A stretch of 24,121 bases of DNA. Source: a virus. The stretch lies in the UHGV virus genome UHGV-0136745; one strand, given 5' to 3'. This document shows, one piece after another, positions 6,152 to 18,735 of this stretch (positions are counted from its first letter, which is position 1; every line of letters begins with the position of its first letter). Under the pieces are notes generated by a model. That model was not told the DNA's origin and made no database searches. It saw only the letters and a program-made list of their open reading frames with translations. Position numbers and translations under genes: made by a program.

Positions 6152-6180
6152 ACTATAATAGCTAACTATTCAGTAGTCAA
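6152..6180 (-). promoter_or_regulatory. sigma70-like promoter (reverse strand TTGACT-17 nt-TATAGT) with embedded palindrome AATAG-N4-CTATT
   Basis: Reverse complement reads TTGACTactgaatagttagctatTATAGT. A CCGGG/CCCGG hairpin lies in the predicted 5' UTR (6126..6140) ahead of the SSB-like gene. Confidence 0.5.
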
Positions 6181-6184
6181 CACT

Positions 6185-6367
6185 TTATTCTAAATCTTCT
6201 TTCTTACACATCTCTAAAAAGGCTTTGTACGAGGTTATTCTAAATACCCGGTCAACAGCCTTAGACTTGCTTCTGTGAAGAACATGCACTAGTCCTCTTT
6301 TCTTTCGGGCCATAAACTCATCTAAATACGCCCGGCGCAATTGCTCAACTGTACTTGATTTACTCAT
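6185..6367 (-). CDS. hypothetical small basic protein (60 aa)
   Basis: ORF 6185..6397; start placed at internal ATG 6367 (MSKSSTVEQLRRAY), which overlaps the nuclease stop as ATGA. Confidence 0.45.
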   Translation of the reverse strand: MSKSSTVEQLRRAYLDEFMARKKRGLVHVLHRSKSKAVDRVFRITSYKAFLEMCKKEDLE

Positions 6368-8997: not shown

Positions 8998-9026
8998 ACT
9001 ATAATAGCAAACTATTCACCTGTCAA
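8998..9026 (-). promoter_or_regulatory. sigma70-like leftward promoter (TTGACA-17 nt-TATAGT) with embedded palindrome AATAG-N4-CTATT
   Basis: Reverse complement reads TTGACAggtgaatagtttgctatTATAGT: consensus -35, 17-nt spacer, near-consensus -10. Divergent from the HTH gene promoter. Confidence 0.55.
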
Positions 9027-9029
9027 CGC

Positions 9030-9058
9030 TTTTTATCAAAAAATTAATATGCTACTAT
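9030..9058 (+). promoter_or_regulatory. putative rightward promoter for HTH gene (-10 TACTAT, weak AT-rich -35)
   Basis: gCTACTATTCAcaTATC at 9051..9067 matches the -10 and downstream part of the 12546 and 13921 promoters; upstream is AT-rich (TTTTTA) rather than a good -35. Confidence 0.35.
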
Positions 9059-9089
9059 TCACATATCAATCAGCTAAGGAGTAACCATT

Positions 9090-9314
9090 ATGCAACAGTC
9101 ACCAATTGGCGCTCGTATGGAGCAACGCCGTAAAGAGCTTGGCCTGTCCCAGCGCCGTTTAGCTACTCTGGTCGGCGTTTCCCAGGGGGCGATTAACCAA
9201 CTTGCCCTCGGCGTAACTCAAGATGTCCGTCGCACCACTCTGTTTAAACTTGCGGAAGTTCTCGAAGTTAAGCCAGAGTGGTTAGCTTTCGGTGACCAGA
9301 CTCAAGGGGCTTAA
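9090..9314 (+). CDS. HTH-XRE family transcriptional regulator (Cro/CI-like)
   Basis: 74 aa; ELGLSQRRLATLVGVSQGAINQLALG is a classic XRE helix-turn-helix. AAGGAG SD upstream. Only rightward gene in this region. Confidence 0.85.
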   Translation: MQQSPIGARMEQRRKELGLSQRRLATLVGVSQGAINQLALGVTQDVRRTTLFKLAEVLEVKPEWLAFGDQTQGA

Positions 9315-9331: not shown

Positions 9332-11596
9332 CTATTCCAAATCCTCCTCAGTCACTACCAGCATTTCGTTCGGTTCGTACACGGTCTTCGGTATCTTGCT
9401 GTCGTTAATCCTGGTGTTTAGCCTGTATCGCCCAGGTATTATCTGATTGTTCTCGTCAGTACCGGGTACAAGATATCCTGCTTCAACCATTTTCTTAATC
9501 TTACCGCGCTCTATAGCTTCCTTAGAGTTGAACGCCTTTGCATTAGGGTCAGACTGCGCAAGCTTATTAGCTGCGGCTACTGTGATACCTTCGTTGCCGT
9601 TGTAGGTTCCCTCCGCCAGTTCAAACGCAGCCAGTATCGTGGCTTCTGAACTGTTTACTGCGTTCTCTACGGTTTTTCGTACATTTTCTTTACCTTCCTT
9701 TGTCAGCCCTTCTTCCTTCTCTTTCTCTTCGTCAGTCTTGAATGGCTCAAAGCCCCACGGCATCAACACGAGCGCCTTATGTGGCTCCGGTAGGTCGAGG
9801 TTTACGATTGTGCCGTATTCCTCGGTGCTGCCGATGAATTCTACCGCGCGGTACGCCTTCGGAGGAGGGGCTTCACGGAACTGTACTGACTCCAGCACCA
9901 TGCCAATCGTTTTCTGTTGCGGCCCGTGCTTAAATTTAGTGTGTGACACGTTAATCTGGCGGTCGGTTGCACGTTCAATTGTCAGTTCCACATCGACACC
10001 CGCATACAGCGCACCACTGCCACGGGCTTTCTTTCCACCTTTTGGCGTGTGATGGACCACACCAACGGCGGCTTTAGTCGCGTCGCGGACTTCTTTCAGT
10101 ATGGCTATAACTTTACCCATACCGATTGCCGTTGATGAACTATTCTCGTCGAACTTATCAATCGTCAGGGCCAGCGTCTGGTTAAGGGTGTCGAACGCAA
10201 CCATGCCAATTGGCTCATCGCCAGCAGTTTCGCGCATCAGCTTAATCAGGCTTTTCAGTTTGCCGACGTCGCCCATATCGATAACGTGGATGTAGTTCTT
10301 CCCTTCCTCTCCGTACTTAGCCGCGAGCGCATCAATACGTGTGCGCGTAGCTGCACCGCCCTCACCATCGATATAAAAGTGATGGCAGCGTTGGGTGTCC
10401 GCACCTGCAAACCGATATCCGGCAGCGCTCAGGTACATCATGCCAAGGGTGTAGAAAGACTTATATGTGCCGGACTCACCGACAATATCCCAGATACAGT
10501 CCGACGGCATATAGCCCTCGACGACGAAATCGGCCTTTACCGGTTCCGGTAAATCGTCTTCCTCAGAGTCGTCGTCTTCCAGGTCGTCAAGGCTACATTC
10601 GACCGTTTCACGTGCACCCCAGCCGATGGCCTCAGCGACTTCACTGAACGGCAGCCCTGTCGCTTCGCAAGCGTATTTCCACACCTCTTTCGGCGACATC
10701 CCCTCTGTTGCCGTTAGGTCGGTGTCGTGAATCATGGTTACGTTAGGCGCAGCGTAGCCCTCGCGCGGGAAGCACAGCAGGAAATCATCCGGGCGCGGTG
10801 TCGGGTCACTGTAGTTCTCGGCGTGCTCAGGCGTCGCTGGCATCTTCAGACCACGTGGTGTAATGACACCGCCATACTCGAATGCCAGTGCTTCGAACGC
10901 GTCCGTAAACGCTGTGCGCAGTTCTTCCGGTATCTGGTAGTCGGATGCGCTGCTTACCTCGTAATCCGGGACTCCTTCCAGCAGACGGTCAGGGTCAATC
11001 ATGCCATTTCGGCGAGACCAGACGACCTCAGAGTTAACTGGCGGCAGGTACATCGGCTGGGACAGGGTAAACCCGCTGCGGTCAGCACCCATGCCTTTAA
11101 AGAAGTGCTCCAGCAGCCCGTGGCGGACGCGGATGATATCACCACCCTCTACCGGACGCGCCAGCGGCATGACGACACGGAAACGCGGTGATTCGTCGGT
11201 GTGTGATGCCGTGGTGTAAAGGCACATTGCTACACGGCTGCGCTTAACCAGACGCACAGCTTCCTGATACTCTTCTGGCGTCGCGCTGTCAAAATCCAGA
11301 TAAGCCAGTGACGATTTACTTACTGACGCGTCACAGCGGTAGAAGAAGCCCCGTCTCGCCTGTTTAAACTCGCCCGTTTCCGGGTCTTTCACGGTGCTGT
11401 GTGTTGAGCCGCACGCGGCAGTAATGTACCCCGGCGCGGTCTTTGGGTTAATCCCGTCACGAACGGCGTCAAGTGGCTGGATTAACTCTTTAAGGTCGTC
11501 CAGTGTTGCCGTGTGAGTGGTTCTGACGTTTATATCCTTTTTCTCCGCCCGCGCGTTGCGGCGAGACCATGAATAGGATAAAATTACATCGGACAT
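9332..11596 (-). CDS. DNA primase/helicase (primase-polymerase N-terminal region plus RecA-fold helicase domain)
   Basis: 754 aa. Walker A-like VGESGTYKSF, later VVHHTPKGGKKARGSGALYAGVDVEL (RecA/DnaB-like helicase motifs), acidic linker (DDLEDDDSEEDD). Size and position fit phage primase-helicase fusions. Confidence 0.8.
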   Translation of the reverse strand: MSDVILSYSWSRRNARAEKKDINVRTTHTATLDDLKELIQPLDAVRDGINPKTAPGYITAACGSTHSTVKDPETGEFKQARRGFFYRCDASVSKSSLAYLDFDSATPEEYQEAVRLVKRSRVAMCLYTTASHTDESPRFRVVMPLARPVEGGDIIRVRHGLLEHFFKGMGADRSGFTLSQPMYLPPVNSEVVWSRRNGMIDPDRLLEGVPDYEVSSASDYQIPEELRTAFTDAFEALAFEYGGVITPRGLKMPATPEHAENYSDPTPRPDDFLLCFPREGYAAPNVTMIHDTDLTATEGMSPKEVWKYACEATGLPFSEVAEAIGWGARETVECSLDDLEDDDSEEDDLPEPVKADFVVEGYMPSDCIWDIVGESGTYKSFYTLGMMYLSAAGYRFAGADTQRCHHFYIDGEGGAATRTRIDALAAKYGEEGKNYIHVIDMGDVGKLKSLIKLMRETAGDEPIGMVAFDTLNQTLALTIDKFDENSSSTAIGMGKVIAILKEVRDATKAAVGVVHHTPKGGKKARGSGALYAGVDVELTIERATDRQINVSHTKFKHGPQQKTIGMVLESVQFREAPPPKAYRAVEFIGSTEEYGTIVNLDLPEPHKALVLMPWGFEPFKTDEEKEKEEGLTKEGKENVRKTVENAVNSSEATILAAFELAEGTYNGNEGITVAAANKLAQSDPNAKAFNSKEAIERGKIKKMVEAGYLVPGTDENNQIIPGRYRLNTRINDSKIPKTVYEPNEMLVVTEEDLE

Positions 11597-11654: not shown

Positions 11655-11945
11655 TTAACGTTTAGCCAGACATTCCATTAAATGTGAATATTTTCTGTAA
11701 TAGCAAGGAACTAAATCACACCCAAAATAATGATAAACATAATCCAAGTGGTCGGTAACATCTATAGCGGCCGACATTGTGCTAAGACGGCGAAGGCTAA
11801 TCAACTGTAATTCTTCCGTAATGCAAAATGGCTCATACGTATCAAGTTTGCAAGAAACGTTAAAACACAGAGCATAGCCGTCTTGTGCGGAGTGGACCAG
11901 AAATGCACTGTCGTTCTCTTTATCGTGAAAAATTACACCTTTCAT
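11655..11945 (-). CDS. hypothetical protein (96 aa)
   Basis: ORF in operon orientation; start overlaps stop of upstream AlpA-like gene (ATGA). No recognisable motif. Confidence 0.45.
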   Translation of the reverse strand: MKGVIFHDKENDSAFLVHSAQDGYALCFNVSCKLDTYEPFCITEELQLISLRRLSTMSAAIDVTDHLDYVYHYFGCDLVPCYYRKYSHLMECLAKR

Positions 11946-12112
11946 CTCACATTCTCCTTAACCCACGCTTCTACTTTATTTCGGTCAAACGTACCCGGCA
12001 TACGGCGGCCCATTACTTTAACGCTGCAATCAGGGAACTTCCCGCTTTTAATCCAGTTGTTTATTGTCTGGCGAGTAACTCCGATTAATTCTGCAACCTC
12101 GTTTATAGTCAT
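11942..12112 (-). CDS. AlpA/excisionase-family HTH DNA-binding protein (56 aa)
   Basis: MTINEVAELIGVTRQTINNWIKSGKFP is the AlpA/Xis-type HTH signature. Start at internal ATG 12112 with AGGAGA SD; track ORF extends to 12184 with an implausible Cys-rich N-terminus. Confidence 0.65.
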   Translation of the reverse strand: MTINEVAELIGVTRQTINNWIKSGKFPDCSVKVMGRRMPGTFDRNKVEAWVKENVR

Positions 12113-12522
12113 TTCACGCTCTCCTGTGTAAGATGTAGTGAAGTATAAAGCGGTAACTTTGTAAAAGCAACCAAAACAACACACAAAGCACTAAGATACA
12201 AAAGATGCTACTGGTATTGACTTTTACTTAAAAATATGCTAAGCTTCACTGAGCTTGTGAGATATCGCAAGCGACCGCGGAGCGGCAGGGAACGCAACGC
12301 GTGCCATCAGGCACTTGAGTGTAGTTCCGCTGGCGCTTTCGGAAGGGCCAAAGTCTATTGTTAATCACGCCTAAATACCCAAGTCACTGATAATTAAAGT
12401 TTCTATAGTTGCCGTAAGCAAGGTAGCGAGTACTTCACTCCGCTGGGGTGGGCTAACGCCCACCCACTGCGTTGCGTACTCTTTTAAGAAAACGAAGAAT
12501 CACAACGGCAACGAATCTTCGC

Positions 12523-12551
12523 TTGCACACCCCAATATAATAGGCTACTAT
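12523..12551 (+). promoter_or_regulatory. rightward promoter (TTGCAC-17 nt-TACTAT) with embedded palindrome AATAG-N4-CTATT
   Basis: cTTGCACaccccaatataataggcTACTATtcacttatcgaaacgag; about 45 nt are near-identical to 13896..13940. Precedes the first small-gene operon. Confidence 0.45.
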
Positions 12552-12585
12552 TCACTTATCGAAACGAGACAGATGAGTGGGGGTT

Positions 12586-12777
12586 ATGTTTAAGAAGGGT
12601 CAGTTGGTGCGAACCGCAGACGGCATCTATGGAGTTATCGAAAAAGAGAGTACTGTGTATCGAAGGTCGTATATAGTCCGTTCTCTTTATATCAGCGGGT
12701 CAGTATCTGTGCTGGTTTGCGACATAAATGAGCTACTACTCATCGGCAACAATTTTAAATTCAAAGGGGCGAAGTGA
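12586..12777 (+). CDS. hypothetical protein (63 aa)
   Basis: ATG 12586 preceded by GAGTGGGGG; alternative GTG at 12577. First gene of rightward operon. Confidence 0.5.
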   Translation: MFKKGQLVRTADGIYGVIEKESTVYRRSYIVRSLYISGSVSVLVCDINELLLIGNNFKFKGAK

Positions 12778-12980
12778 TGGAAGAATTATTTGAAGAACTG
12801 AAACACCATGAACTGGAAGAAGTGCATTTCCGGGTAAACAGATACGAAGTTGTTATTTTAGGTGGGGTAACAATTATCACAGCTTCTGCGGGAAGAATGC
12901 TTCATAGTTTACGTTCCATACGAACGACATCGAATCATGATGCCAGTGCCGACGACTCTGAGGGAGGTTGCCGTGAATAA
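12774..12980 (+). CDS. hypothetical protein (68 aa)
   Basis: Start overlaps upstream stop (GTGATGG). Acidic N-terminus. Confidence 0.5.
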   Translation: MMEELFEELKHHELEEVHFRVNRYEVVILGGVTIITASAGRMLHSLRSIRTTSNHDASADDSEGGCRE

Positions 12981-13028
12981 TTACACGTTTATTTTAATTG
13001 TCAGCGCCGTTTGTGTGGTGCACGCGTT

Positions 13029-13232
13029 ATGGGGGCTGGTGTGGGGATTCGAATAATCGACGTTGATTATGTTCTTCCGCCGGGTTATGGCGACCATTCA
13101 CTGCGCTACTTTGGCGTCTCCGTCGGAGATGAGTTCGAGGTTATAACTTATAACGATTACGGGTGCACCGTTGAGCATTGCGGGGAAGAACTGTACGTGC
13201 GTCGACGTGAATATGTGATTCTGGAGGGCTAA
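13029..13232 (+). CDS. hypothetical protein (about 67 aa)
   Basis: Track ORF 13011..13232 begins at TTG; first in-frame ATG is 13029. Start ambiguous; overlaps a candidate 27-aa hydrophobic ORF at 12973..13056. Confidence 0.4.
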   Translation: MGAGVGIRIIDVDYVLPPGYGDHSLRYFGVSVGDEFEVITYNDYGCTVEHCGEELYVRRREYVILEG

Positions 13233-13235
13233 GTT

Positions 13236-13379
13236 ATGAGAGAAGCATTTGAACGCTGGGCCGTCGTCGAGGGGTTGCCTGTTAACAAGGGTTCGAAGAA
13301 AGAGTACCTGAACGTTAAGACGCGTCTTGCGTGGCGTGCGTGGAAAGCTGGGGTTTTGTTTATCACGAATCAGAGGTGA
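13236..13379 (+). CDS. hypothetical small protein (47 aa), unannotated in ORF track
   Basis: ATG 13236 preceded by GGAGGG; translation MREAFERWAVVEGLPVNKGSKKEYLNVKTRLAWRAWKAGVLFITNQR; stop 3 nt before the next gene. Confidence 0.4.
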   Translation: MREAFERWAVVEGLPVNKGSKKEYLNVKTRLAWRAWKAGVLFITNQR

Positions 13380-13382
13380 GTT

Positions 13383-13586
13383 ATGGGCGAGTGGATTAAG
13401 TGTAGTGAGCGGATGCCGGAAGAAACGGGAGACATTATTGTTTGTTGCTTCGACGGCATAGTAATGTCCGGGATTTCTTACTCACGGAGTAAAGGGTTCT
13501 TCATAGCTGCGTTGGAGTATGACGATGATGAGCCGATTGACGATGTAGTCTACTGGATGCCGTTACCAGAGCCGCCGGAAGTGTGA
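13383..13586 (+). CDS. DUF551-like phage protein
   Basis: MGEWIKCSERMPEE...VVYWMPLPEPPEV: N-terminal W-x-x-C-x-ER-x-P and C-terminal WMPLPEPP are as I recall them for DUF551. GAGGTGA SD. Confidence 0.55.
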   Translation: MGEWIKCSERMPEETGDIIVCCFDGIVMSGISYSRSKGFFIAALEYDDDEPIDDVVYWMPLPEPPEV

Positions 13587-13628
13587 TGTTATATTGTAAC
13601 AATAGTTTGGGATTTTACTGAGTGACTT

Positions 13629-13666
13629 ACGCTGCTACACAGCAGCGTATCATTTTTCTCATTTTT
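13629..13666 (+). terminator. intrinsic terminator
   Basis: Perfect 8-bp stem ACGCTGCT-acac-AGCAGCGT followed by atcaTTTTTctcaTTTTT. Confidence 0.6.
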
Positions 13667-13719
13667 GTTCTATTTCACGAAACGCAACAATCGAAGCGAC
13701 TATTGCAGGAGATGCAACA

Positions 13720-13890
13720 ATGAAACCAAATGACATCGTAACCTGGGTCGGGCGTAACGGAGAAAAGCGATTCGGTCTTATCGTAGCTACCAACGGCAAC
13801 ACGTATCGGGTTATGCGCTGGCGACAGTGGGCTAAGAGGCCGAGGTACTACTGGATTAGAGAAGAGAGACTTTCTCTTAAACACCAATAA
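13720..13890 (+). CDS. hypothetical small basic protein (56 aa), unannotated in ORF track
   Basis: ATG 13720 preceded by GCAGGAG; translation MKPNDIVTWVGRNGEKRFGLIVATNGNTYRVMRWRQWAKRPRYYWIREERLSLKHQ. Preferred over antisense ORF 13675..13887, which lacks an SD and opposes operon direction. Confidence 0.4.
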   Translation: MKPNDIVTWVGRNGEKRFGLIVATNGNTYRVMRWRQWAKRPRYYWIREERLSLKHQ

Positions 13891-13897
13891 AATTTAC

Positions 13898-13926
13898 TTG
13901 CACACGTAGATATAATAGACTACTAT
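13898..13926 (+). promoter_or_regulatory. rightward promoter (TTGCAC-17 nt-TACTAT) with embedded palindrome AATAG-N4-CTATT
   Basis: cTTGCACacgtagatataatagacTACTATtcagttatcgaaacgag; near-identical to the 12523 promoter cassette. Confidence 0.45.
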
Positions 13927-13957
13927 TCAGTTATCGAAACGAGAGGAGAGACAGAGC

Positions 13958-14101
13958 ATGAATAACAAACCGGTACAAGAACCATCACGCGAGGTACTAG
14001 AGTTCTACGCATTGTCACCTAGGAATACCCGTGAACGCCAGACCGCTCGGTTATTACTGGAACTTATGAACAGAGAGGCTAAAAATGCAGAACGCAAATG
14101 A
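13958..14101 (+). CDS. hypothetical small protein (47 aa), unannotated in ORF track
   Basis: ATG 13958 preceded by GAGAGGAGAG; translation MNNKPVQEPSREVLEFYALSPRNTRERQTARLLLELMNREAKNAERK; 3' end overlaps next gene start. Confidence 0.4.
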   Translation: MNNKPVQEPSREVLEFYALSPRNTRERQTARLLLELMNREAKNAERK

Positions 14102-14522
14102 CGCAGTAATCGAGTTCCTGCTTAACCAGTTACGGCAGCAGCTAACGAAAAACCCATACAAGCAACAGTGCGAAGACCTGGCCCATGAGGTGTTGTCGCT
14201 CAAGAACCAGTTACGTGATGCTTCGGCGCTGGCGGCTGAGTTGCAGAAAGAGCTTGAGCACACAGGCAGTGAGTATCGACGCGCGATTGATTACGCTCTT
14301 AGCGATGCGCCTGAGCAATCTGGCTGCCGTAAAAATGATACCCAGGAGTGTTATCATAACTGGCGATTTGTTGGCGGTAAGTCACCGGCTGTATGTGTTA
14401 ATTGCGGTGTGACTAAGTCAGAAGGATGTGCGCACGATTGGAGGGTTGTGCAGTATTGCGCGGGGGTAGAGACGGATAAGTGTCGTATTTGTGGGGGAGA
14501 AAAAGAGGTTCACTACGAATGA
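14085..14522 (+). CDS. hypothetical protein with helical N-terminal half and Cys-rich (zinc-ribbon-like) C-terminal half
   Basis: 145 aa; C-terminal CYHNW...CVNCG...C...C...CRICGG suggests metal binding. AGAGG SD. Confidence 0.55.
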   Translation: MQNANDAVIEFLLNQLRQQLTKNPYKQQCEDLAHEVLSLKNQLRDASALAAELQKELEHTGSEYRRAIDYALSDAPEQSGCRKNDTQECYHNWRFVGGKSPAVCVNCGVTKSEGCAHDWRVVQYCAGVETDKCRICGGEKEVHYE

Positions 14523-14719
14523 CCACACTCCTTTTCATCTGGACTTTGACCGCGGGCCAGTTACAACTAGCGGCAACAGAAACGTTTTACTCACTTGAGG
14601 CGTGCCAGGCTGCAGCACGCAACGCAGAGAACGCGCACTTCCTGTTTCAGGATAAGCCGATTGATACTGAGGTGCGCGCAACATGTTCAACGAAGCGATT
14701 AGGTAAGCAGGAGAAATAA
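14519..14719 (+). CDS. hypothetical protein with N-terminal hydrophobic (signal/anchor-like) segment (66 aa)
   Basis: Start ATG 14519 overlaps upstream stop (ATGA); MTTLLFIWTLTAGQLQLAA is hydrophobic. Confidence 0.45.
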   Translation: MTTLLFIWTLTAGQLQLAATETFYSLEACQAAARNAENAHFLFQDKPIDTEVRATCSTKRLGKQEK

Positions 14720-14720
14720 G

Positions 14721-14903
14721 ATGGTACAGAGATACGAAATAGCCGGGAAATATATGGTGTACCCAAAAGACGAGGGGCGAATTGTTTTATACGAAGACTA
14801 CGCGAAACTCGAAGCCGAGTTACAGAAATACAAAGACCAGTTCCCAGATTACGTAGAGTGTCCGAATTGTGGGTCGTTTACACATGTGGAAGGGGTGGAA
14901 TGA
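14721..14903 (+). CDS. hypothetical protein (60 aa) with CPNCG motif
   Basis: GCAGGAGAAATAAG upstream of ATG 14721; single CxxC. Confidence 0.5.
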   Translation: MVQRYEIAGKYMVYPKDEGRIVLYEDYAKLEAELQKYKDQFPDYVECPNCGSFTHVEGVE

Positions 14904-15067
14904 CACTCGCAACTGACATCATGAAACACAGCGGCAAAGCGCCGCTGTCACCACGTAAAAGACATTTCAACACGCATCCGACGTATCTAGAATTACATGA
15001 GCGCCGGAAGACACCAGCACAACGACTGGCTGAATATTGGAGAAAGCATGACTACTATCGCGTTTGA
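14900..15067 (+). CDS. hypothetical small basic protein (55 aa)
   Basis: Start ATG 14900 overlaps upstream stop (ATGA); GAAGGGGTGG upstream. 3' end overlaps the HslV-like gene by 20 nt. Confidence 0.4.
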   Translation: MTLATDIMKHSGKAPLSPRKRHFNTHPTYLELHERRKTPAQRLAEYWRKHDYYRV

Positions 15068-15485
15068 CGGTAAGACGATGGCCTGCGACACCCGGGTTAC
15101 CTGCGGAGACACGTTCTGCAACACCGATACCAAGATATACGAGAACGATGCTTATGTTATCGGGGTCGCCGGTGACGCGGGTGTCGGAACTATGCTCGTT
15201 CAGGTGTCAAATATCCTGACTATGCGTACTTATGAGTATAACTTCCAGGCTATCGTATATGAGAAACATACCCAACGTATCTTCTATGTGTCGTTCGATA
15301 AAAAATGGGAGTCAAATAGCAGCGTTGTCCCAATTGTTGATAGCTACTTCGCCGTCGGTTCAGGGGCTGATTTCGCGCGCGCAGCTATGTATTTAGGTAA
15401 CACCGCAACACGCGCTGTTACGGTAGCTGCAGAGTTCGACATAAACACGGGGGGCAAGATTATTACCAAACCATTATTCGGATAA
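15048..15485 (+). CDS. HslV/proteasome beta-subunit-like N-terminal-nucleophile (Thr) peptidase
   Basis: From ATG 15048 (GGAGAAAG SD): MTTIAFDGK... with Thr directly after Met, as in HslV (TTIVSV...); VIGVAGDAG vs HslV VIAGFAGGTAD; YFAVGSGADFARAAMYLG vs HslV LIAIGSGGPYAQAAARAL. No HslU-like ATPase in the window. Confidence 0.65.
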   Translation: MTTIAFDGKTMACDTRVTCGDTFCNTDTKIYENDAYVIGVAGDAGVGTMLVQVSNILTMRTYEYNFQAIVYEKHTQRIFYVSFDKKWESNSSVVPIVDSYFAVGSGADFARAAMYLGNTATRAVTVAAEFDINTGGKIITKPLFG

Positions 15486-15501
15486 TTCCTAACCGTGGTA
15501 T

Positions 15502-15537
15502 CCTCCAGGTACAGCATACTAAATACGCACCTGGAGG
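15502..15537 (+). promoter_or_regulatory. inverted repeat that would sequester the holin ribosome-binding site
   Basis: CCTCCAGGT (15502..15510) and ACCTGGAGG (15529..15537), 18-nt spacer; the right arm contains the GGAGG SD for the TTG start at 15545. Confidence 0.4.
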
Positions 15538-15544
15538 ATTCATC

Positions 15545-15853
15545 TTGGATAAATTTACTGAAACTGTGACAGGCTGGCTTCTGGCTGCCGCACTAGCTGG
15601 CGGAGTAATAGGCCTACGGCAACATAAAGCCACTATTACCGGCCCTGTCGATGCTCTCTGTTTTCTCGCCACTGGCTTTGCGTGTGCCGTATTCGGTGCG
15701 CCTCTCGCCGCTCAATGGTTCGGTATCGCAGGTGAACGCGAAATAGCGGGCCTTGGGTTCATCATTGCTATTCTCTGGATGCCGATTTATTCCCGTCTCT
15801 CTGGCATTGTCGCCGGAGAATACATCGCACGTCGCGGAGGTAGCAATGACTGA
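15545..15853 (+). CDS. holin-like protein, three predicted TM segments (class I-like)
   Basis: 102 aa; hydrophobic stretches TGWLLAAALAGGVIGL, ALCFLATGFACAVFGAPLAAQWF, IAGLGFIIAILWMPIY; charged C-terminus. TTG start with GGAGG SD. Directly upstream of lysozyme. Confidence 0.55.
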   Translation: MDKFTETVTGWLLAAALAGGVIGLRQHKATITGPVDALCFLATGFACAVFGAPLAAQWFGIAGEREIAGLGFIIAILWMPIYSRLSGIVAGEYIARRGGSND

Positions 15854-16127
15854 GTTATTCTGGTTTGGCGGTATGCTCGCAATCGGGGGCACATCGCTGT
15901 TTAATGTATACCACCCCAGCGTAGATGATGGCCTGTTTGGGCGTGTGCTGTATATCCTCACTGCTATTGTTTGCGCCGCCGGTTGCATCCACCTGCTACA
16001 GGGCAGCATGTCACCGACGCTGCCGGAAACATTAATCACCCTGGTAGCGCTGCGACAGATTCGCCAGTCGTGGCTGCATTACCAGTCGAAAGGAGGGCAT
16101 AAGCGTGTCTCGAAACATTTCAGATAA
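15846..16127 (+). CDS. second holin/antiholin-like protein, two predicted TM segments
   Basis: From internal ATG 15846 (overlaps upstream stop): MTELFWFGGMLAIGGTSLF..., LYILTAIVCAAGCIHLL, basic C-terminal tail. Track ORF starts at 15753. Confidence 0.5.
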   Translation: MTELFWFGGMLAIGGTSLFNVYHPSVDDGLFGRVLYILTAIVCAAGCIHLLQGSMSPTLPETLITLVALRQIRQSWLHYQSKGGHKRVSKHFR

Positions 16128-16590
16128 TGGCTTGCATTTCTGCGCCGAGTTCGAAGGCTTCCGTGGAACTGCGTACCGCGCTACGCCGGATGAGAAGTAC
16201 CTGACTATAGGCTACGGGCATTATGGCGCAGACGTTAAGCCTGGTCAGACTATCACGCCGGGGCAAGGCCTCCTGCTACTCAATCGCGATATGGCTAAGG
16301 CGGTAGCCGCCGTTGATGCCGCGGCGCATCACTCACTGACGCAGGGCCAGTTCGACGCAGTATGCGACCTGGTGTTTAACGCAGGTGCTGGCGTTATCGC
16401 GGCTACTACCGGTACTGGTAAGGCCCTGCGCGCAGGTGACATTGCTACGCTGCGGGCTAAGCTGGCGCTGTTTATCAACCAGAACGGCAAACCGTTACTC
16501 GGCCTGCGCCGCCGTACAGCCGGGCGTCTGGCATTGTTCGACGGTAAACCGTGGCAAGAGGCGGTTGCTATCGGGAGGGCGGTAAAATGA
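16105..16590 (+). CDS. endolysin, GH24 lysozyme (T4 e / lambda R-like fold)
   Basis: N-terminal GLHFCAEFEGFRGTAYRATPDEKYLTIGYGH carries the Glu...Asp...Thr catalytic arrangement of phage-type lysozymes. GTG start with AAAGGAGGG SD. No TM segment, so holin-dependent. Confidence 0.85.
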   Translation: MSRNISDNGLHFCAEFEGFRGTAYRATPDEKYLTIGYGHYGADVKPGQTITPGQGLLLLNRDMAKAVAAVDAAAHHSLTQGQFDAVCDLVFNAGAGVIAATTGTGKALRAGDIATLRAKLALFINQNGKPLLGLRRRTAGRLALFDGKPWQEAVAIGRAVK

Positions 16591-16802
16591 TGGACGAATA
16601 CGAAGGCGTTTAGTATTCTGTTCATGCCAAGTTTTTCGTATTTGCTTACTGGAGGCCATTATGGCACTGCAAGAGTTCACCAACCCAGTTAAATCTCGTG
16701 ACGATATCGACGAGCAGATCGACTACGGCGAAGGTTGACACTTAATACTAATCCGACGATACTTAAATCACCTCCTGTATCACCCCTCTGCTCTCTGTTT
16801 CT

Positions 16803-16832
16803 CCCGGCCCTGACCCAGCCGGGATTTTTTTA
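16803..16832 (+). terminator. intrinsic terminator after lysis cassette
   Basis: CCCGGC-cctgaccca-GCCGGG followed by ATTTTTTTAT. Confidence 0.6.
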
Positions 16833-16853: not shown

Positions 16854-16882
16854 TTGACTATTACTCTGACACCAATTATATT
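16854..16882 (+). promoter_or_regulatory. sigma70-like promoter (TTGACT-17 nt-TATATT)
   Basis: ttGACTagTTGACTattactctgacaccaatTATATTtact, about 30 nt upstream of the 16916 gene and just after the terminator. Confidence 0.45.
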
Positions 16883-16915
16883 TACTCCATCGACAACGAT
16901 AACGGAGTAGAGAAG

Positions 16916-17113
16916 ATGAAAGACACTAAGTGGCAGAATGAAGCGTTACGTATGAGGACAAACAACATAGATGCTATCGCCGAAGCTCATCTTGATGCCG
17001 GGGTTTACGGTAGTGGCTGGCTTAAGGTTGATGTAAATGGGTATCTAACACGCATAAATCCTCTTGATATAGTCATAACCGTTAAAGCGTTAAACCGCGA
17101 GGAGGCTGAATAA
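16916..17113 (+). CDS. hypothetical protein (65 aa)
   Basis: GGAGTAGAGAAG SD before ATG 16916; first gene of a coupled small-gene block. Confidence 0.5.
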   Translation: MKDTKWQNEALRMRTNNIDAIAEAHLDAGVYGSGWLKVDVNGYLTRINPLDIVITVKALNREEAE

Positions 17114-17262
17114 TGAAAATAACAGATATCGAAGCATTCAAAGACGCGCAACTGATGGCACGTATCGCCGTTAGTAACCTGAGCAACAGCATTCCAGCGG
17201 ACGCGTTCTGGTTCGCCGCGATGCAGACACTGAAGGCAGCGTATGCAGGAGAGAAGAAATGA
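17113..17262 (+). CDS. hypothetical small protein (49 aa), unannotated in ORF track
   Basis: ATG 17113 overlaps upstream stop (TAATG); translation MKITDIEAFKDAQLMARIAVSNLSNSIPADAFWFAAMQTLKAAYAGEKK; stop overlaps next start (ATGA). Confidence 0.45.
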   Translation: MKITDIEAFKDAQLMARIAVSNLSNSIPADAFWFAAMQTLKAAYAGEKK

Positions 17263-17468
17263 GCGAAGTTACCGTCGGTGGCATCTACAGGAGTGATTAT
17301 TCGTGGGGTGAAGAGGATGACGCCAGATTCATCGTAACCGCGGTAGGGTTGGACCACATACTTATCGCGGACTGCCCATTGATAAAATTCAATGACTCAT
17401 ATTTAGAATATTGTGTTGGTAGAAAGGAGTTTGAGGCTAAATTTAAGTTTGCAGGAGAGAAGAAATGA
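17259..17468 (+). CDS. hypothetical acidic protein (69 aa)
   Basis: ORF with GCAGGAGAGAAG SD; flanked by a 24-bp direct repeat at both start and stop junctions. Confidence 0.5.
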   Translation: MSEVTVGGIYRSDYSWGEEDDARFIVTAVGLDHILIADCPLIKFNDSYLEYCVGRKEFEAKFKFAGEKK

Positions 17469-17626
17469 GCGAACAAGGTCAAGTAAGCCAACCGTTACGT
17501 GTGGGCCGTAAAGTCAGTCACACCCAGTTCCCGACACGTGAGGAACTGATGAAACGTAACAGTTTCCCGGGGCCGGACAAGAACAAGTATCTCAATCGCA
17601 TGTGGGGAGAGCGTAAAAATGACTGA
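17465..17626 (+). CDS. hypothetical small basic protein (53 aa), unannotated in ORF track
   Basis: ATG 17465 within the second copy of the 24-bp junction repeat; translation MSEQGQVSQPLRVGRKVSHTQFPTREELMKRNSFPGPDKNKYLNRMWGERKND; overlaps next start. Confidence 0.45.
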   Translation: MSEQGQVSQPLRVGRKVSHTQFPTREELMKRNSFPGPDKNKYLNRMWGERKND

Positions 17627-17804
17627 CCGTGAATATGAAAAGATGATGGTGGAGGCTGTTAACAACGGCGTAGATATTGGTCACGTTATGCACGTCCTGA
17701 ACACTAAAATCGCAGTAGCTGAGCAAATGGTGGAGTCGCTTTATGAGACTCGCCGTGAGCTTATTAACCGCTTCAACCTGAACAAAGGTGACAGCAATGC
17801 CTAA
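17619..17804 (+). CDS. hypothetical protein (61 aa)
   Basis: ORF translationally coupled to neighbours on both sides. Confidence 0.5.
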   Translation: MTDREYEKMMVEAVNNGVDIGHVMHVLNTKIAVAEQMVESLYETRRELINRFNLNKGDSNA

Positions 17805-18075
17805 AATCACAATCGCATCACTTGAACGCCGTATCCTGGTGCTGGAGTCAGAGAAGCAGACGTTAGGCGGGCAACTGTCTATCAATGGCGAGTTTCAGCT
17901 GGAGGCGTTTAAAGAACTACTGACTATTATGGCGGACATAGAAAATATGTGCTTGTTGCTAGAATCTGGGGAGTGGGCGGAGCATTGCACTAAGTCAGAA
18001 TTTGGCCAACGGCTCGAATTGGAGATTACTGACTTGCTTAGTGGTCTTGGATGGTCGCCAGATGAAATCGCCTGA
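17797..18075 (+). CDS. hypothetical protein (92 aa)
   Basis: Start at ATG 17797 (MPKITIAS), overlapping upstream stop; track ORF begins 17788. Confidence 0.5.
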   Translation: MPKITIASLERRILVLESEKQTLGGQLSINGEFQLEAFKELLTIMADIENMCLLLESGEWAEHCTKSEFGQRLELEITDLLSGLGWSPDEIA

Positions 18076-18244
18076 ACCAGTAGTCATTGATGGTGTCCTG
18101 TGGAAACCTTACGCGGTTAACCACATCGACGCCGACGGGAAGAAGTTCAGCTTCTACATTTTTGCAATTAGCCGTGAGCACGCCGCTTGTGTGGTCGACG
18201 ATATACGAGAAACGGCGTGGCTCGGCGATGAGATAGTAGGGTGA
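18062..18244 (+). CDS. hypothetical protein (60 aa)
   Basis: Start at internal ATG 18062 (MKSPEPVVIDG), overlapping upstream gene end; track ORF begins 18002 inside the previous gene. Confidence 0.4.
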   Translation: MKSPEPVVIDGVLWKPYAVNHIDADGKKFSFYIFAISREHAACVVDDIRETAWLGDEIVG

Positions 18245-18331
18245 GAGTATGAGCCTTGAAGTGGTTATAAGTTTAGTTGGTCTTAGTTATTTTATCAGGT
18301 TGACCGTCGGCTTTCTGTGGGGTAGATACTG

Positions 18332-18502
18332 ATGTTCGATAATATTGACGCAGCAATCGAAGAAGCAATCTGGCGTCGCCACAACGGCGAGCAACAACGA
18401 CACTTCTGCCTCGTGCAGCGCGGTAACATGATTGCCGTGGTGCAGGACAGAGATAATAAATACCCAAATGCGATGTGGACGACGAGGAATTTCTTAGGAT
18501 GA
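18332..18502 (+). CDS. hypothetical small protein (56 aa), unannotated in ORF track
   Basis: ATG 18332; translation MFDNIDAAIEEAIWRRHNGEQQRHFCLVQRGNMIAVVQDRDNKYPNAMWTTRNFLG. Preferred over antisense ORFs 18273..18651. Confidence 0.4.
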   Translation: MFDNIDAAIEEAIWRRHNGEQQRHFCLVQRGNMIAVVQDRDNKYPNAMWTTRNFLG

Positions 18503-18735
18503 TTACCAGCATTCCGAACCTGATTAAAGAATACGGCACGATGGCGGAGACATGCCGACAAACCGGCATCAACGAAATGACGATTCGCAAGTACAGCAAA
18601 GACGTTGATTGCGAGCGCCATGTAATTTATAACAACCGTCTCATGACACACGTTAAGACAAGCCCGGTGCTATTCACGCGCCGTGGCGTCACGAAGACTG
18701 AGCAACGCATTGCACGAGAGGAGAGTGAGGAATGA
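18499..18735 (+). CDS. hypothetical protein with possible HTH (78 aa)
   Basis: Start ATG 18499 overlaps upstream stop (ATGA); AETCRQTGINEMTIRKYSK resembles a helix-turn-helix. Confidence 0.45.
   Translation: MITSIPNLIKEYGTMAETCRQTGINEMTIRKYSKDVDCERHVIYNNRLMTHVKTSPVLFTRRGVTKTEQRIAREESEE

Follow-up and report, generated by a model that had tools for sequence, protein, structure and literature searches.

A fast-evolving region of small genes between the replication and lysis modules of a Kagunavirus-like Escherichia coli phage

The window analysed here, a stretch of 24,121 nucleotides of viral DNA, belongs, judging by its sequence, to a Kagunavirus-like siphophage of E. coli (Guernseyvirinae). 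The island of small genes that it carries is probably (about 0.7) an instance of the hyperplastic accessory region common to all Kagunavirus/Guernseyvirinae phages, located between the replication and lysis modules, and we read it as ordinary phage architecture. Nothing that we found shows any island gene blocking a bacterial defence system.

Layout of the region

The island has leftward helicase-primase/HTH genes on one side and the lysis cassette on the other, and its gene order is that of annotated relatives (Table 1). The rightward genes are 12 well supported ones and one doubtful ORF of 27–39 aa, o2b, and with the latter counted in, the about 13 small genes of the preliminary description were recovered, every ORF named there being found on the + strand. 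The size range given for them, 45–70 aa, fits most of the genes, but o8 and o12 are 145 aa each. The ATGA/TGATG overlaps said to join them were seen at three of nine junctions (o1/o2, o8/o9, o10/o11); at the other six, gaps of 1–3 nt separate o3/o4, o4/o5 and o9/o10, overlaps of 17–20 nt join o7/o8 and o11/o12, and o2/o3 is the exception with a gap of 48 nt, occupied by o2b. The ORFs are closely packed, as for translational coupling. A Shine-Dalgarno-like purine run, supposed to precede each gene, stands before all starts but two, the ATGs of o2b and o3. A family is recognisable only for o5 (DUF551) and o12 (HslV-like), which agrees with the earlier statement that most of the genes lack a recognisable motif.

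Table 1. Features of the island and the adjoining lysis genes.
Feature	Position	Strand	Remarks
P1, promoter/leader element	12523..12569	+	TTGCAC 12523-12528, 17 nt, TACTAT 12546-12551
o1, 63 aa	12586-12777	+	phrog_12538, E 2e-9
o2, 67 aa	12777-12980	+	TGATG overlap with o1; phrog_30617, C-terminal part only
o2b, doubtful hydrophobic peptide	12937/12973-13056	+	39 aa (ATG 12937) or 27 aa (GTG 12973)
o3, 67 aa	13029-13232	+	phrog_10916, E 4e-11; third-position substitution excess
o4, 47 aa	13236-13379	+	phrog_15836, E 3e-34
o5, 67 aa, DUF551 domain protein	13383-13586	+	Pfam PF04448, 50.7 bits (cut-off 22)
Intrinsic terminator, end of operon 1	13628..13659	+	9-bp stem 13628-13649, then TCATTTTTCT, dG -17.7
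o6, 56 aa, facultative gene between terminator and P2	13720-13890	+	phrog_9384, E 1e-18
P2, promoter/leader element, second copy of P1	13898..13944	+	TTGCAC 13898-13903, TACTAT 13921-13926
o7, 47 aa, rare cassette in hypervariable slot adjoining P2	13958-14101	+	Three clusters, all same slot
o8, 145 aa, coiled coil and zinc-ribbon-like modules	14085-14522	+	phrog_6094, E 2e-35
o9, 66 aa	14519-14719	+	phrog_3766, E 3e-29
o10, 60 aa	14721-14903	+	phrog_29624, E 4e-31
o11, 55 aa	14900-15067	+	Weak phrog_9632 match
o12, 145 aa, HslV-like N-terminal-nucleophile hydrolase, facultative	15048-15485	+	PHROG 'peptidase HslV family'
Holin-leader hairpin	15500..15539	+	ATCCTCCAGGT ... ACCTGGAGGAT, dG about -22
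Lysis cassette, downstream part of P2 unit	15545..16590	+	Holins 15545-15853 and 15846-16127, endolysin 16105-16590; phrog_2359, phrog_2508, Pfam Phage_lysozyme
Intrinsic terminator, end of P2 unit	16802..16832	+	Stem of CCCGGCC...GGCCGGG type, then ATTTTTTT

Turnover of gene content among related phages

The published cluster of 'hypothetical protein' genes between helicase-primase and holin in Kagunavirus/Jerseyvirus phages (such as K1G-type phages, Bas70-76, RP180, fFiEco03 and phiWAO78-1) agrees with the island in position and strand, in its promoters and terminator and in the genes of the scaffold, and it has positional homologues for 11 of the 12 well supported genes. The window differs from it in having its own mix of alleles, the rare o7, a short o11 and the facultative o6 and o12. 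Megablast matched 228 records of the Kagunavirus/Jerseyvirus type, and no more than 54% of 12400-15600 is covered by the best GenBank record.

In a comparison with 50 related loci, the relatives keep a scaffold of o1, o4, o5, the terminator, P2, o8, o9, o10, an o11-like gene and the holin, and four slots exchange whole cassettes, with 12–23 arrangements per slot. The proteins o1, o5 and o8 are only 42–46% identical to their relatives, as compared to 86–91% for the lysis proteins. Mosaic content, an amino-acid identity far lower than in the flanking core genes, and dN/dS bear out the preliminary view of an accessory island whose small genes lie, in two tightly packed rightward operons, between those for replication and lysis; the island is also fast-evolving.

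The genes of unit 1 vary in different ways. A homologue of o1 was found in 36/50 loci (median identity 46%, dN/dS 0.55), and column conservation shows conserved ends (MFKKGQLV... and ...LIGNNFKFKGAK) around a hypervariable core; o5 likewise has a hypervariable core between conserved ends, with a median identity of 42%. Full-length o2 is present in 13/50 loci and is poor in substitutions at codon position 2, and its C-terminal tail SNHDASADDSEGGCRE also occurs on unrelated proteins that fill this slot in relatives. The start of o3, present at ≥70% coverage in 12/50 loci, is uncertain, the ATG at 13029 having a poor Shine-Dalgarno sequence and a GTG at 13041 being the alternative. The most conserved gene of operon 1 is o4, found in 42/50 loci with 60% of its substitutions at codon position 3. 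Between the operons, o6 is present in 14/50 loci (dN/dS 0.10, 55% of substitutions at codon position 3).

Among the later genes, o10 has a conserved MVQRY start and the C-terminal sequence ...LEAELQKYKDQFPDYVECxNCGSxTHVEGVE, and is often in tandem duplicate among relatives (dN/dS 0.18). The o11 gene is an internally deleted short form, seen in 4/51 loci with the window included, of a 97-aa family that is present in most relatives; the 97-aa relative matches phrog_9632 at E 4e-55. In its resemblance to HslV (ClpQ) and proteasome beta subunits, which are N-terminal-nucleophile hydrolases, o12 begins with Met-Thr-Thr and keeps lysine 29 and a Gly-Ser-Gly motif, the last two of which we take to align with the catalytic residues of HslV. 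It matches HslV and proteasome chains in PDB weakly, its score against the Pfam Proteasome model is under the cut-off and its structure model is of low confidence (pLDDT 60). From these residues o12 is probably an active threonine protease. The other products may be small and single-domain and, instead of acting as enzymes, bind and modulate partners from the host or the phage.

Lambdoid exo-xis and nin regions are likewise runs of small, packed, mosaic and mostly unknown early ORFs with host-polymerase promoters. DUF551, which occurs in lambdoid Ea22 variants (PMC10834534), is the only gene content that they have in common with the window. However, the window phage is virulent, its region is fused to the lysis operon, and o5 is a stand-alone 67-aa DUF551 protein, whereas in the Ea22-like coiled-coil protein DUF551 is the C-terminal domain.

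Transcription units

The division into two operons is supported because a promoter/leader element of 47–48 nt is duplicated, as P1 and P2, in a near-identical direct repeat for which 0 matches are expected by chance. In addition to the hexamers, P1 has AATAG-N4-CTATT, which is an inverted repeat, and the conserved leader TTATCGAAACGAGA. In 39 related loci P1 precedes the o1 homologue, and P2 is present in 45. TTGCAC-N17-TACTAT is invariant in the copies of relatives and an internal TATAAT is variable; the pairing of TTGCAC with this TATAAT was rejected, since their spacing is only 7 nt and it is the former arrangement that relatives keep. The predicted hexamers match consensus weakly, at 3/6 and 4/6 positions.

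The strong terminator and the 56-aa gene described between the operons are both there, and the terminator is kept in 40/40 related loci that have both landmarks. The proposed end of the second operon did not hold. Neither 15067 nor 15485 is a unit boundary, because operon 2 runs without a terminator into the holins and endolysin; terminator and hairpin analysis found none between the start of the P2 unit and the holin, the first being at 16802-16824, and the next promoter past the unit is TTGACT-17-TATATT at 16854. The hairpin in front of the holin is not a terminator because it has no T-run. Within it the ribosome-binding site of the TTG-start holin, GGAGG, is base-paired, and the hairpin is kept in 45/45 examined loci with a close, full-length holin match.

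The AATAG-N4-CTATT repeat overlaps both P1 and P2, and both are conserved in position. The core of the repeat is also found inside the three strong leftward promoters of the replication genes, as well as in that of a Cro-like regulator gene (9090-9314); a third copy of the promoter precedes the Cro/XRE-like regulator gene. An independent report on Kagunavirus fBC-Eco01 describes the same repeated motif in 7 copies per genome (PMC9825357). It appears that host sigma-70 RNA polymerase would transcribe unit 1 (o1-o5) up to the intrinsic terminator, and unit 2 (o7-o12) with reading on through the holins and endolysin. The two units and the replication genes may form one early/middle regulon, which one phage HTH protein could control through the shared operator. 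In published Kagunavirus RNA-seq the adjacent HTH gene is early and helicase and lysozyme are middle, and the island genes have no class there (PMC12645636).

Possible functions

The fast turnover would reflect adaptation to particular hosts, which could include counter-defence but equally takeover, exclusion or lysis tuning. A tentative reading, short of probable, is that the conserved genes of the scaffold (o4, o9, o10, the o8 coiled coil and the o11 family) work for phage development itself, such as in lysis timing, the control of transcription or an accessory role in replication, and that only the slot cassettes are truly accessory. The almost universal o4 and o9 are uniformly conserved, with median identities of 91% and 79% and dN/dS of 0.08 and 0.15, although the universality of o9 is biased in 40/50 loci because those were collected via o9 itself. 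In GenBank, 10/10 relatives have an o9 that is 73–95% identical. The lysis cassette is contiguous with unit 2, and o9, whose hydrophobic N-terminus, with LAA at its end, and two cysteines are conserved, is probably a small secreted protein that would act in the periplasm, the site of lysis execution. The N-terminal coiled coil of o8 (aa 2-73) has 21 invariant positions, but the changing number of modules behind it fits poorly with a fixed housekeeping target, and no similarity to a known regulator, spanin, antiholin or replication protein was found in Pfam, PHROGs, NCBIfam or PDB sequences.

It is rather unlikely, though still worth considering, that the region is a counter-defence island where at least one small protein inhibits a host defence by stoichiometric binding and the turnover reflects an arms race. 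This overlaps with the accessory-region explanation, and the two are not exclusive. Across 33 loci, 19 families occupy the slot directly after P2, in 20 arrangements, o1 and o5 have their hypervariable cores, and o7 is very rare yet conserved as a protein. No tblastn match to o7 was found in 50,697 phage genomes, and complete E. coli genomes and the 50 related loci gave none either; it has three clusters among 5.8 billion proteins, all from the same slot of Kagunavirus-like contigs, and 12/16 and 14/20 of the differences from these only relatives are at codon position 3. In o8 the coiled coil is followed by two CxHxW...CxxCG zinc-ribbon-like modules, and the family, with 896 protein-database clusters, has 0–4 modules of several types that are shuffled. 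The cassette o7 and the module-shuffling o8 are the best anti-defence candidates.

The AlphaFold2 model of o8 (pLDDT 78.5) gave no informative fold match, and there was no informative Pfam match. The head-to-tail H-x-W ... C-x-x-C-G modules of o8 resemble GHxW...C..CxxCG repeats that stand in tandem in proteins of metagenomic bacteria, either secreted or anchored as lipoproteins. The likeness is weak (E 1e-10 to 1e-4), and repetition and a high share of cysteines help it. Those bacterial proteins are long and extracellular and carry dockerin, transglutaminase or BspA-LRR domains, whereas o8 is cytoplasmic-looking, 145 aa, and has a coiled coil.

Anti-CRISPR loci have a conserved promoter that drives a variable first gene, and the organisation after P2, with a conserved promoter and leader and then a slot that differs between phages, recalls them by analogy. 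Contrary to such loci, however, the slot has no Aca-type regulator gene at its end, and the unit runs into conserved genes and the lysis cassette. Apparent co-transcription with lysis genes is atypical of an immediate-early counter-defence cassette. The profile check that had been proposed matched no ORF to a named family of anti-defence proteins; it covered Pfam, PHROGs, NCBIfam and PDB sequences, with o2b compared to Pfam and PHROGs alone and o10 to all but NCBIfam. A Lar-like hint for o10 (phrog_3592, E 0.009) was weak and was rejected on the cysteine pattern of that family, which o10 does not have. Ten alternative cassettes from the variable slots of relatives were scanned, and all ten were likewise without known function. 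Mosaicism and fast divergence are general to phage accessory regions whatever their function, and Kagunavirus isolates were reported in published phenotyping to be highly sensitive to restriction-modification systems and variably to Old (PMC11990801). It is also arguable whether the island is the most likely place in the window for anti-defence genes, as the preliminary description held, since 16916-18735 holds a second cluster of this sort, also made up of uncharacterised small genes.

T-even, T5 and T1-like phages have small envelope proteins with an exclusion or envelope role, and secreted o9 together with hydrophobic o2b might in the same way block later infections or alter a receptor. This is improbable as an account of the island. 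The conserved N-terminus, LAA motif and cysteines of o9 would fit, as would o2b as a single-pass hydrophobic peptide after a strong Shine-Dalgarno sequence (GAGGGAGG, before the GTG at 12973). However, o9 has neither a lipobox nor a positive N-terminal region, neither protein has a family match giving such a function (o2b has none at all in Pfam or PHROGs), o2b lacks a coding signature, and at most 2 of the 13 ORFs would be covered.

Coding signal and selection

The substitution patterns against relatives show that the ORFs are under purifying selection. Substitutions concentrate at codon position 3 in o3-o6 and o8-o12, as compared to a flat distribution across codon positions in an internal non-coding control (13622-13719). 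The codon-position bias of o1 was not significant. The dN/dS of the island genes is 0.08–0.55, higher than the 0.04–0.07 of core genes. The DNA of o2b is conserved among relatives, but its substitutions show no codon-position bias, and neither do those of a 33-aa ORF that spans the terminator (13622-13723). These two, and the fact that several ORFs are shorter than 60 aa, could suggest that the ORFs arose by chance or are what is left of decaying genes within a long regulatory spacer, a reading that is hardly credible and was rejected for all but o2b: twelve ORFs have a third-position excess or dN/dS below 1, ten belong to PHROG families at E < 1e-6, dozens of relatives keep the ORF lengths and start contexts, and the GC skew, which changes sign at about 12.5 kb, going from negative values to +0.25, is consistent with the strand.

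Identity of the phage

A megablast search with positions 12400-15600 against 50,697 phage records gave 228 matching records, all of them named as Kagunavirus, Jerseyvirus-type or Escherichia, Salmonella, Klebsiella, Raoultella or Shigella phages, which are siphophages. The best GenBank coverage of the query was at most 54%, at 82-92% identity, and five of the nine annotated records that were fetched carry a Guernseyvirinae/Kagunavirus taxonomy line. The helicase and the lysis proteins are 84-97% identical to those of the relatives. Annotated relatives have three leftward genes, for the helicase-primase, a small protein and an HTH protein, and then 11-15 rightward 'hypothetical proteins', sometimes including an 'HslV family peptidase', after which the holins and the endolysin come. 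Nucleotide similarity and a gene order in common with classified members place the virus in Kagunavirus (Guernseyvirinae). The matches, the flanking genes and the gene order together imply that the window comes from a metagenomic member of a group of phages that is well sampled, and the island of small genes between the replication and lysis modules is this group's standard block of unannotated small genes. It is already found in more than two hundred public genomes as hypothetical proteins, and such a region is ordinary for a phage genome. One record, OR594180.1 (Escherichia phage vB_EcoM_SHAK7693, 45 kb), has the taxonomy line Autographiviridae/Kayfunavirus and a name implying a myovirus, but it is probably mislabelled, since gene order and sequence of the region are those of Kagunavirus.

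Kagunavirus phages are common, small (41-45 kb) and strictly lytic, and have been adopted as therapy candidates and as chassis for synthetic biology; the island makes up about a tenth of their genome. It is likely, with a probability of roughly 0.7, that the island would consist of two operons of translated small proteins, transcribed by the host polymerase within the early/middle regulon of the phage, and that exchangeable slots would be held in a fixed scaffold. What is added here is the map of these slots, the putative common operator motif, the rare gene o7 and the modular nature of o8.

Coding content of the island

The preliminary description had proposed about 13 small genes, and every ORF that it named was found on the sequence. 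Here o1 to o12 are the well-supported rightward genes of the island, and o2b is a doubtful ORF (Table).

Table. Features of the island and its surroundings.
Feature	Position	Strand	Remarks
Core motif, six copies	2651-2690, 6154-6190, 9000-9036, 9043-9080, 12536-12552, 13911-13927	+ (as written)	
Cro/XRE-type regulator	9090-9314	+	74 aa; phrog_4, phrog_8 and others, E 1e-12
Replicative helicase-primase	9332-11596	-	753 aa; phrog_3228, E 6e-282
95-aa ORF		-	
HTH_17 regulator	11942-12184	-	
o1	12586-12777	+	
o2	12777-12980	+	
o2b	12937 or 12973 to 13056	+	
o3	13029-13232	+	
o4	13236-13379	+	
o5	13383-13586	+	
o6	13720-13890	+	
o7	13958-14101	+	
o8	14085-14522	+	
o9	14519-14719	+	
o10	14721-14903	+	
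o11	14900-15067	+	
o12	15048-15485	+	
Holin	15545-15853	+	
Second holin	15846-16127	+	
Phage lysozyme	16105-16590	+	

Three independent lines of evidence for coding were used: PHROG families, dN/dS and codon-position counts. Function-unassigned PHROG families were matched by ten ORFs (E 1e-7 to 3e-38). In tblastn-guided codon alignments to relatives the Nei-Gojobori dN/dS of the island genes was 0.08-0.55, and that of the helicase, holins and endolysin was 0.04-0.07. The codon-position counts were made on plain nucleotide alignments and are free of protein-alignment bias. Codon position 3 takes 42-60% of the substitutions in o3, o4, o5, o6 and o8-o12, and 72-78% in the lysis genes; in o2 the substitutions are depleted at codon position 2. 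A 33-codon ORF over the terminator (13622-13719), taken as a negative control, was flat, with 30% at position 3. The p-values of these counts are inflated, since the counts are not phylogenetically independent, but the contrast between the coding ORFs and the control is clear despite this. For o1 there was no significant codon-position bias (37% at position 3), and its status as a gene rests on its conserved length and termini, its PHROG family and a dN/dS of 0.55. The doubtful o2b has a strong SD ahead of a GTG at 12973, from which the product would be a hydrophobic peptide of 27 aa; no coding signature was seen for it in the substitution tests.

The genes had also been described as joined by ATGA/TGATG overlaps, each with a plausible SD. 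Such overlaps are present at three junctions, but elsewhere there are three gaps of 1-3 nt and two overlaps of 17-20 nt. A purine-rich SD-like run is found ahead of every start, with the ATGs of o2b and o3 as the exceptions.

Promoters, terminators and a putative common operator motif

The proposed division into two operons is supported by an element that had gone unmentioned, 47-48 nt long and duplicated with 88% identity at 12523-12569 (P1) and 13898-13944 (P2), for which shuffled sequences gave no chance matches. A survey of ten GenBank relatives and forty IMG/VR contigs found the same element upstream of the o1 homologue (39 copies) and of the second operon (45 copies). In all these copies TTGCAC and TACTAT, 17 nt apart, are invariant, but a perfect TATAAT within the spacer varies (CATAAT, TAGAAT, CGTAAT), and we therefore read the promoter as TTGCAC-N17-TACTAT. 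A pairing of TTGCAC with TATAAT is ruled out also by its spacing of 7 nt. The match to sigma-70 is 3/6 (TTGCAC) and 4/6 (TACTAT) at the 17-nt spacing, below the threshold of the scanner, and the conserved leader ends in a GAGG-type ribosome-binding site.

P1 and P2 both contain the inverted repeat AATAG-N4-CTATT. The window has six copies of a TATAATAG-N4-CTATTCA core, all on the + strand as written. Each of the copies at 2651, 6154 and 9000 falls within the spacer of a strong leftward promoter (TTGAC[G/T/A]-17-TATAGT on the minus strand) that serves replication genes; the remaining three lie in rightward promoters, and the copy at 9043 precedes the gene of the Cro/XRE-type regulator. This gene is located inside a leftward block, its P1/P2-type promoter standing back to back with that of the helicase-primase. 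We infer that the core would be an operator common to several promoters, for one phage HTH protein, and the Cro/XRE-type protein is a candidate binder. In the Kagunavirus fBC-Eco01 the motif tgAATAGTa-ccTATTat-T, with seven copies per genome, was attributed to a phage RNA polymerase (PMC9825357), and it is the reverse complement of the core found here. No RNA polymerase gene is visible within the window, and the core looks more like an operator than a site for such an enzyme.

An operator common to P1, P2 and the replication promoters would imply that the island belongs to the regulon of the replication genes. In the sole Kagunavirus RNA-seq study (K1B4; PMC12645636) the neighbouring HTH gene is early, and the helicase and lysozyme are middle; the text of that study names no class for the island genes, the classes of single genes being shown in a figure.

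The strong terminator that had been suggested between the operons is present: a stem at 13628-13649 of 9 bp with 5 GC pairs and a 4-nt loop is followed by TCATTTTTCT (dG -17.7), so that 13628-13659 has the make-up of an intrinsic terminator, and its core is kept in 40 of the 40 loci having both flanking landmarks. Unit 1 (o1-o5) stops here, 3' of o5. The gene o6 lies between this terminator and P2 and may depend on read-through, since a promoter of its own is not evident. Unit 2, which begins with o7, had been thought to end at 15067 or 15485, but the first terminator is found at 16802-16824, and the next promoter 3' of it, TTGACT-17-TATATT, is at 16854. It appears, on the sequence, that a single transcription unit runs from o7 to o12 and on through the lysis genes. 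In the 59 nt that separate o12 from the holin there is a hairpin without a T-run (15500-15539, dG about -22). The 3' arm of this hairpin is GGAGG, the ribosome-binding site for the first holin, and this holin has a TTG start. The hairpin is kept in all related loci examined, some of them carrying differences that extend the stem, and translation of the holin looks damped by it. A 25-aa acidic ORF (MALQEFTNPVKSRDDIDEQIDYGEG; 16661-16738, + strand), preceded by GGAGG, lies 3' of the endolysin and ahead of the terminator that ends the P2 unit. No spanin-like genes are evident downstream of the endolysin.

Fixed scaffold and exchangeable slots

A comparison of 51 loci, the window included, revealed a common arrangement of the region. 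In unit 1 the order is P1, o1, an o2-like gene, a slot, o4, o5, the terminator and another slot, and in unit 2 it is P2, a slot, o8, o9, one or two genes like o10, a gene of the o11 family, then either o12 or no gene, and the holin. ORFs of the loci were called with a simple in-house caller and clustered into families with a 70%-coverage rule. The number of families in each slot is an upper bound, because some of them are distantly related to each other: 16 families in 23 arrangements between o1 and o4 (34 loci), 13 in 12 arrangements between o4 and P2 (36 loci), 19 in 20 arrangements between P2 and o8 (33 loci), and 19 in 19 arrangements between o9 and the holin (46 loci). Several of the P2-slot proteins have a VCDGDxK motif in common.

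Median identities to the proteins of the window are 46% (o1), 42% (o5) and 45% (o8), and 91% (o4), 79% (o9) and 86-91% (lysis proteins). In o1 and o5 the first 9-13 and last 12-14 residues are nearly invariant, but the cores barely align; o4 and o9 are conserved along their whole length. The view of the island as accessory and fast-evolving is upheld by this low protein identity and by the diversity of the slots. Set against the four exchangeable slots, the fixed scaffold is o4, o9, the stalk of o8, o10, the promoters and the terminator.

The o2 slot holds unrelated proteins that have one C-terminal tail in common, ...SNHDA.ADDSEGGCR (SNHDASADDSEGGCRE). It is encoded by a 56-nt block, 12923-12978, which also holds the SD and the GTG of o2b and is about 91% conserved in more than 35 relatives, with different genes on either side. 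The block points to a shuffling of the region by recombination at conserved boundaries of genes, and may itself be a recombination junction.

Properties of the island proteins

The most unusual island protein is o8. Its homologues form 896 clusters in the protein database, with lengths of 104-244 aa, and most of them come from contigs of 41-45 kb. The N-terminal coiled coil is present in every one and has 21 invariant positions. Inserts may follow it, and then 0-4 tandem modules, mostly two, of the form EQSGCRKEDTQE-C-x-H-x-W-(8-25 residues)-C-x-x-C-G, which are of several types and vary in order. The structural model (pLDDT 78.5) has one long helix and two small beta-hairpin units; Foldseek searches of PDB and BFVD returned generic zinc ribbons and Jerseyvirus homologues and nothing further, and no Pfam model matches the protein. 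When the C-terminal 70 residues were used in a full HMMER search, the phage family was found and, weakly, long secreted bacterial proteins with tandem GHxW...CxxCG repeats. Metagenomic bacterial proteins of this kind (e.g. P0260, P0269), secreted or lipoprotein-anchored, have long tandem arrays of GHxW...C..P.TCxxCG, and some also carry dockerin, transglutaminase or BspA-type LRR domains. The GHxW repeat unit gave no significant match in Pfam, only a sub-threshold C1_1 at the HxW start.

For o7, the gene in the P2 slot of the window, tblastn gave no match against the phage records, nor was one seen in complete genomes of E. coli or in the 50 related loci. An origin from E. coli genomes or prophages was dropped, as no match was found there. 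Among 5.8 billion protein clusters there are three, o7 itself and two at 89-91% identity, and all three lie directly 3' of P2 in Kagunavirus-like contigs. Compared with the two relatives, codon position 3 holds 12 of 16 and 14 of 20 nucleotide differences, and the length of 47 codons is kept. o7 is a genuine but rare gene.

The product of o12 matches PHROG 1040 'peptidase HslV family' at E 3e-38, but it scores 17.0 bits against a cut-off of 22.4 for Pfam Proteasome and 24.8 against 191.9 for NCBIfam 20S_bact_beta, and PDB profile matches were seen at E 0.01-0.05 only. The protein starts MTT, so that removal of Met would leave a Thr first, and T2, K29 and G104-S105-G106 are invariant in 21 homologues. 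By the alignment ranges of the PDB matches these would correspond to the catalytic residues of HslV. The residues point to o12 as a putative, facultative HslV-like protease. A lead connecting HslV with anti-defence, JSS1_004, proved irrelevant, as it concerns a T7-like kinase.

o5 is a DUF551 protein (PF04448), with 50.7 bits against a gathering cut-off of 22 and residues 3-66 matching profile positions 1-68 of 68. Elsewhere DUF551 is found at the C-terminus of one Stx-phage Ea22 variant and in the prophage protein YfdS, its function being unassigned (PMC10834534). o9 is probably exported to the periplasm; its hydrophobic N-terminus, which ends in LAA, is conserved, and two of its cysteines are invariant. 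o10 keeps its MVQRY start and its ...LEAELQKYKDQFPDYVECxNCGSxTHVEGVE end, and in relatives it is often tandem-duplicated, the copy having a different tail. The Lar family requires a four-cysteine zinc ribbon, and a Lar-like nature of o10 (PHROG 3592, E 0.009 over 36 residues) was rejected: 45 distinct sequences of its family have at most one CxxC and one His, and Pfam gave no match to Lar_restr_allev. o11, with 55 aa, belongs to a 97-aa family (phrog_9632) from which it differs by an internal deletion, and the short form is present in four loci. An AP2-like reading of the 97-aa family was dropped, as Pfam gave no match at E up to 0.01.

Does the island carry anti-defence genes?

The island had been put forward as the most likely place in the window for uncharacterised anti-defence proteins. 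Acr, Ocr, Ard, Tad, Acb, Gad and other such families, as represented in the libraries, were looked for in Pfam, PHROGs, NCBIfam and PDB sequences, and no ORF gave a match to any of them, with E limits of 0.01-0.1 for the family libraries and 1-5 for the PDB sequence searches; Pfam and PHROGs covered every ORF, NCBIfam o1-o9, o11 and o12, and PDB o1-o12. The notable matches of the ORFs in the Pfam, PHROGs, NCBIfam and PADLOC scans were DUF551, HslV-like and weakly Lar-like only. The PDB searches, with single queries and one concatenated query, returned a weak proteasome match for o12 and coiled-coil or zinc-ribbon noise, nothing further, and the ten ORFs tested against the PADLOC defence-system models had no match. 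Ten alternative slot cassettes of relatives matched DUF7170 and DUF7438 only.

That at least one island gene encodes a counter-defence protein seems possible but rather unlikely to us. The fast turnover, a first gene that varies behind a conserved promoter, and the module shuffling in o8 would fit an arms-race locus, but they fit equally any accessory region of a phage. Seven Kagunavirus isolates in the BASEL study were highly sensitive to RM systems and variably to Old (PMC11990801), which argues against a general anti-restriction function in the region and is silent on other defences. The 'Acr candidates' listed for a relative come from prediction tools only (PMC12919940). Still more doubtful is the specific proposal that the P2 slot and o8 together are an arms-race locus, where o7 and the alternative cassettes would be unrelated, host-specific inhibitors of defence systems, and o8 an inhibitor or decoy of a new kind, its specificity changed by shuffling CxHxW...CxxCG zinc modules on a constant coiled-coil stalk.

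The analysis singles out three proteins that can be tested: o7 as a rare cassette, o8 as a module-shuffling zinc-ribbon-like protein and o12 as a putative, facultative HslV-like protease. If one of them acts on host immunity or on lysis timing, this would explain differences in host range between near-identical phages, and would make clear which genes an engineered phage can lose and which it must retain.

Other features of the window

Between the HTH gene and P1 there is a divergent intergenic region of 400 nt (12185-12585) with short ORFs only, and a GC-rich hairpin, GGGTGGGC-TAAC-GCCCACCC, is found inside it at about 12445-12464. Relatives have small leftward ORFs annotated at the equivalent position. 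Rfam and tRNA scans of the whole window, this region included, gave no match; an origin or a small RNA may be located there.

About nine small rightward genes without assigned function make up a second cluster, 16854-18735, located between the lysis cassette and the terminase genes, behind the promoter at 16854; accessory functions could as plausibly reside here as in the island. A 27-nt direct repeat with 96% identity, at 17241-17267 and 17447-17473, comprises the ribosome-binding site and first codons (GCAGGAGAGAAGAAATGAGCGAA) of two adjacent small genes, which suggests a tandem duplication.
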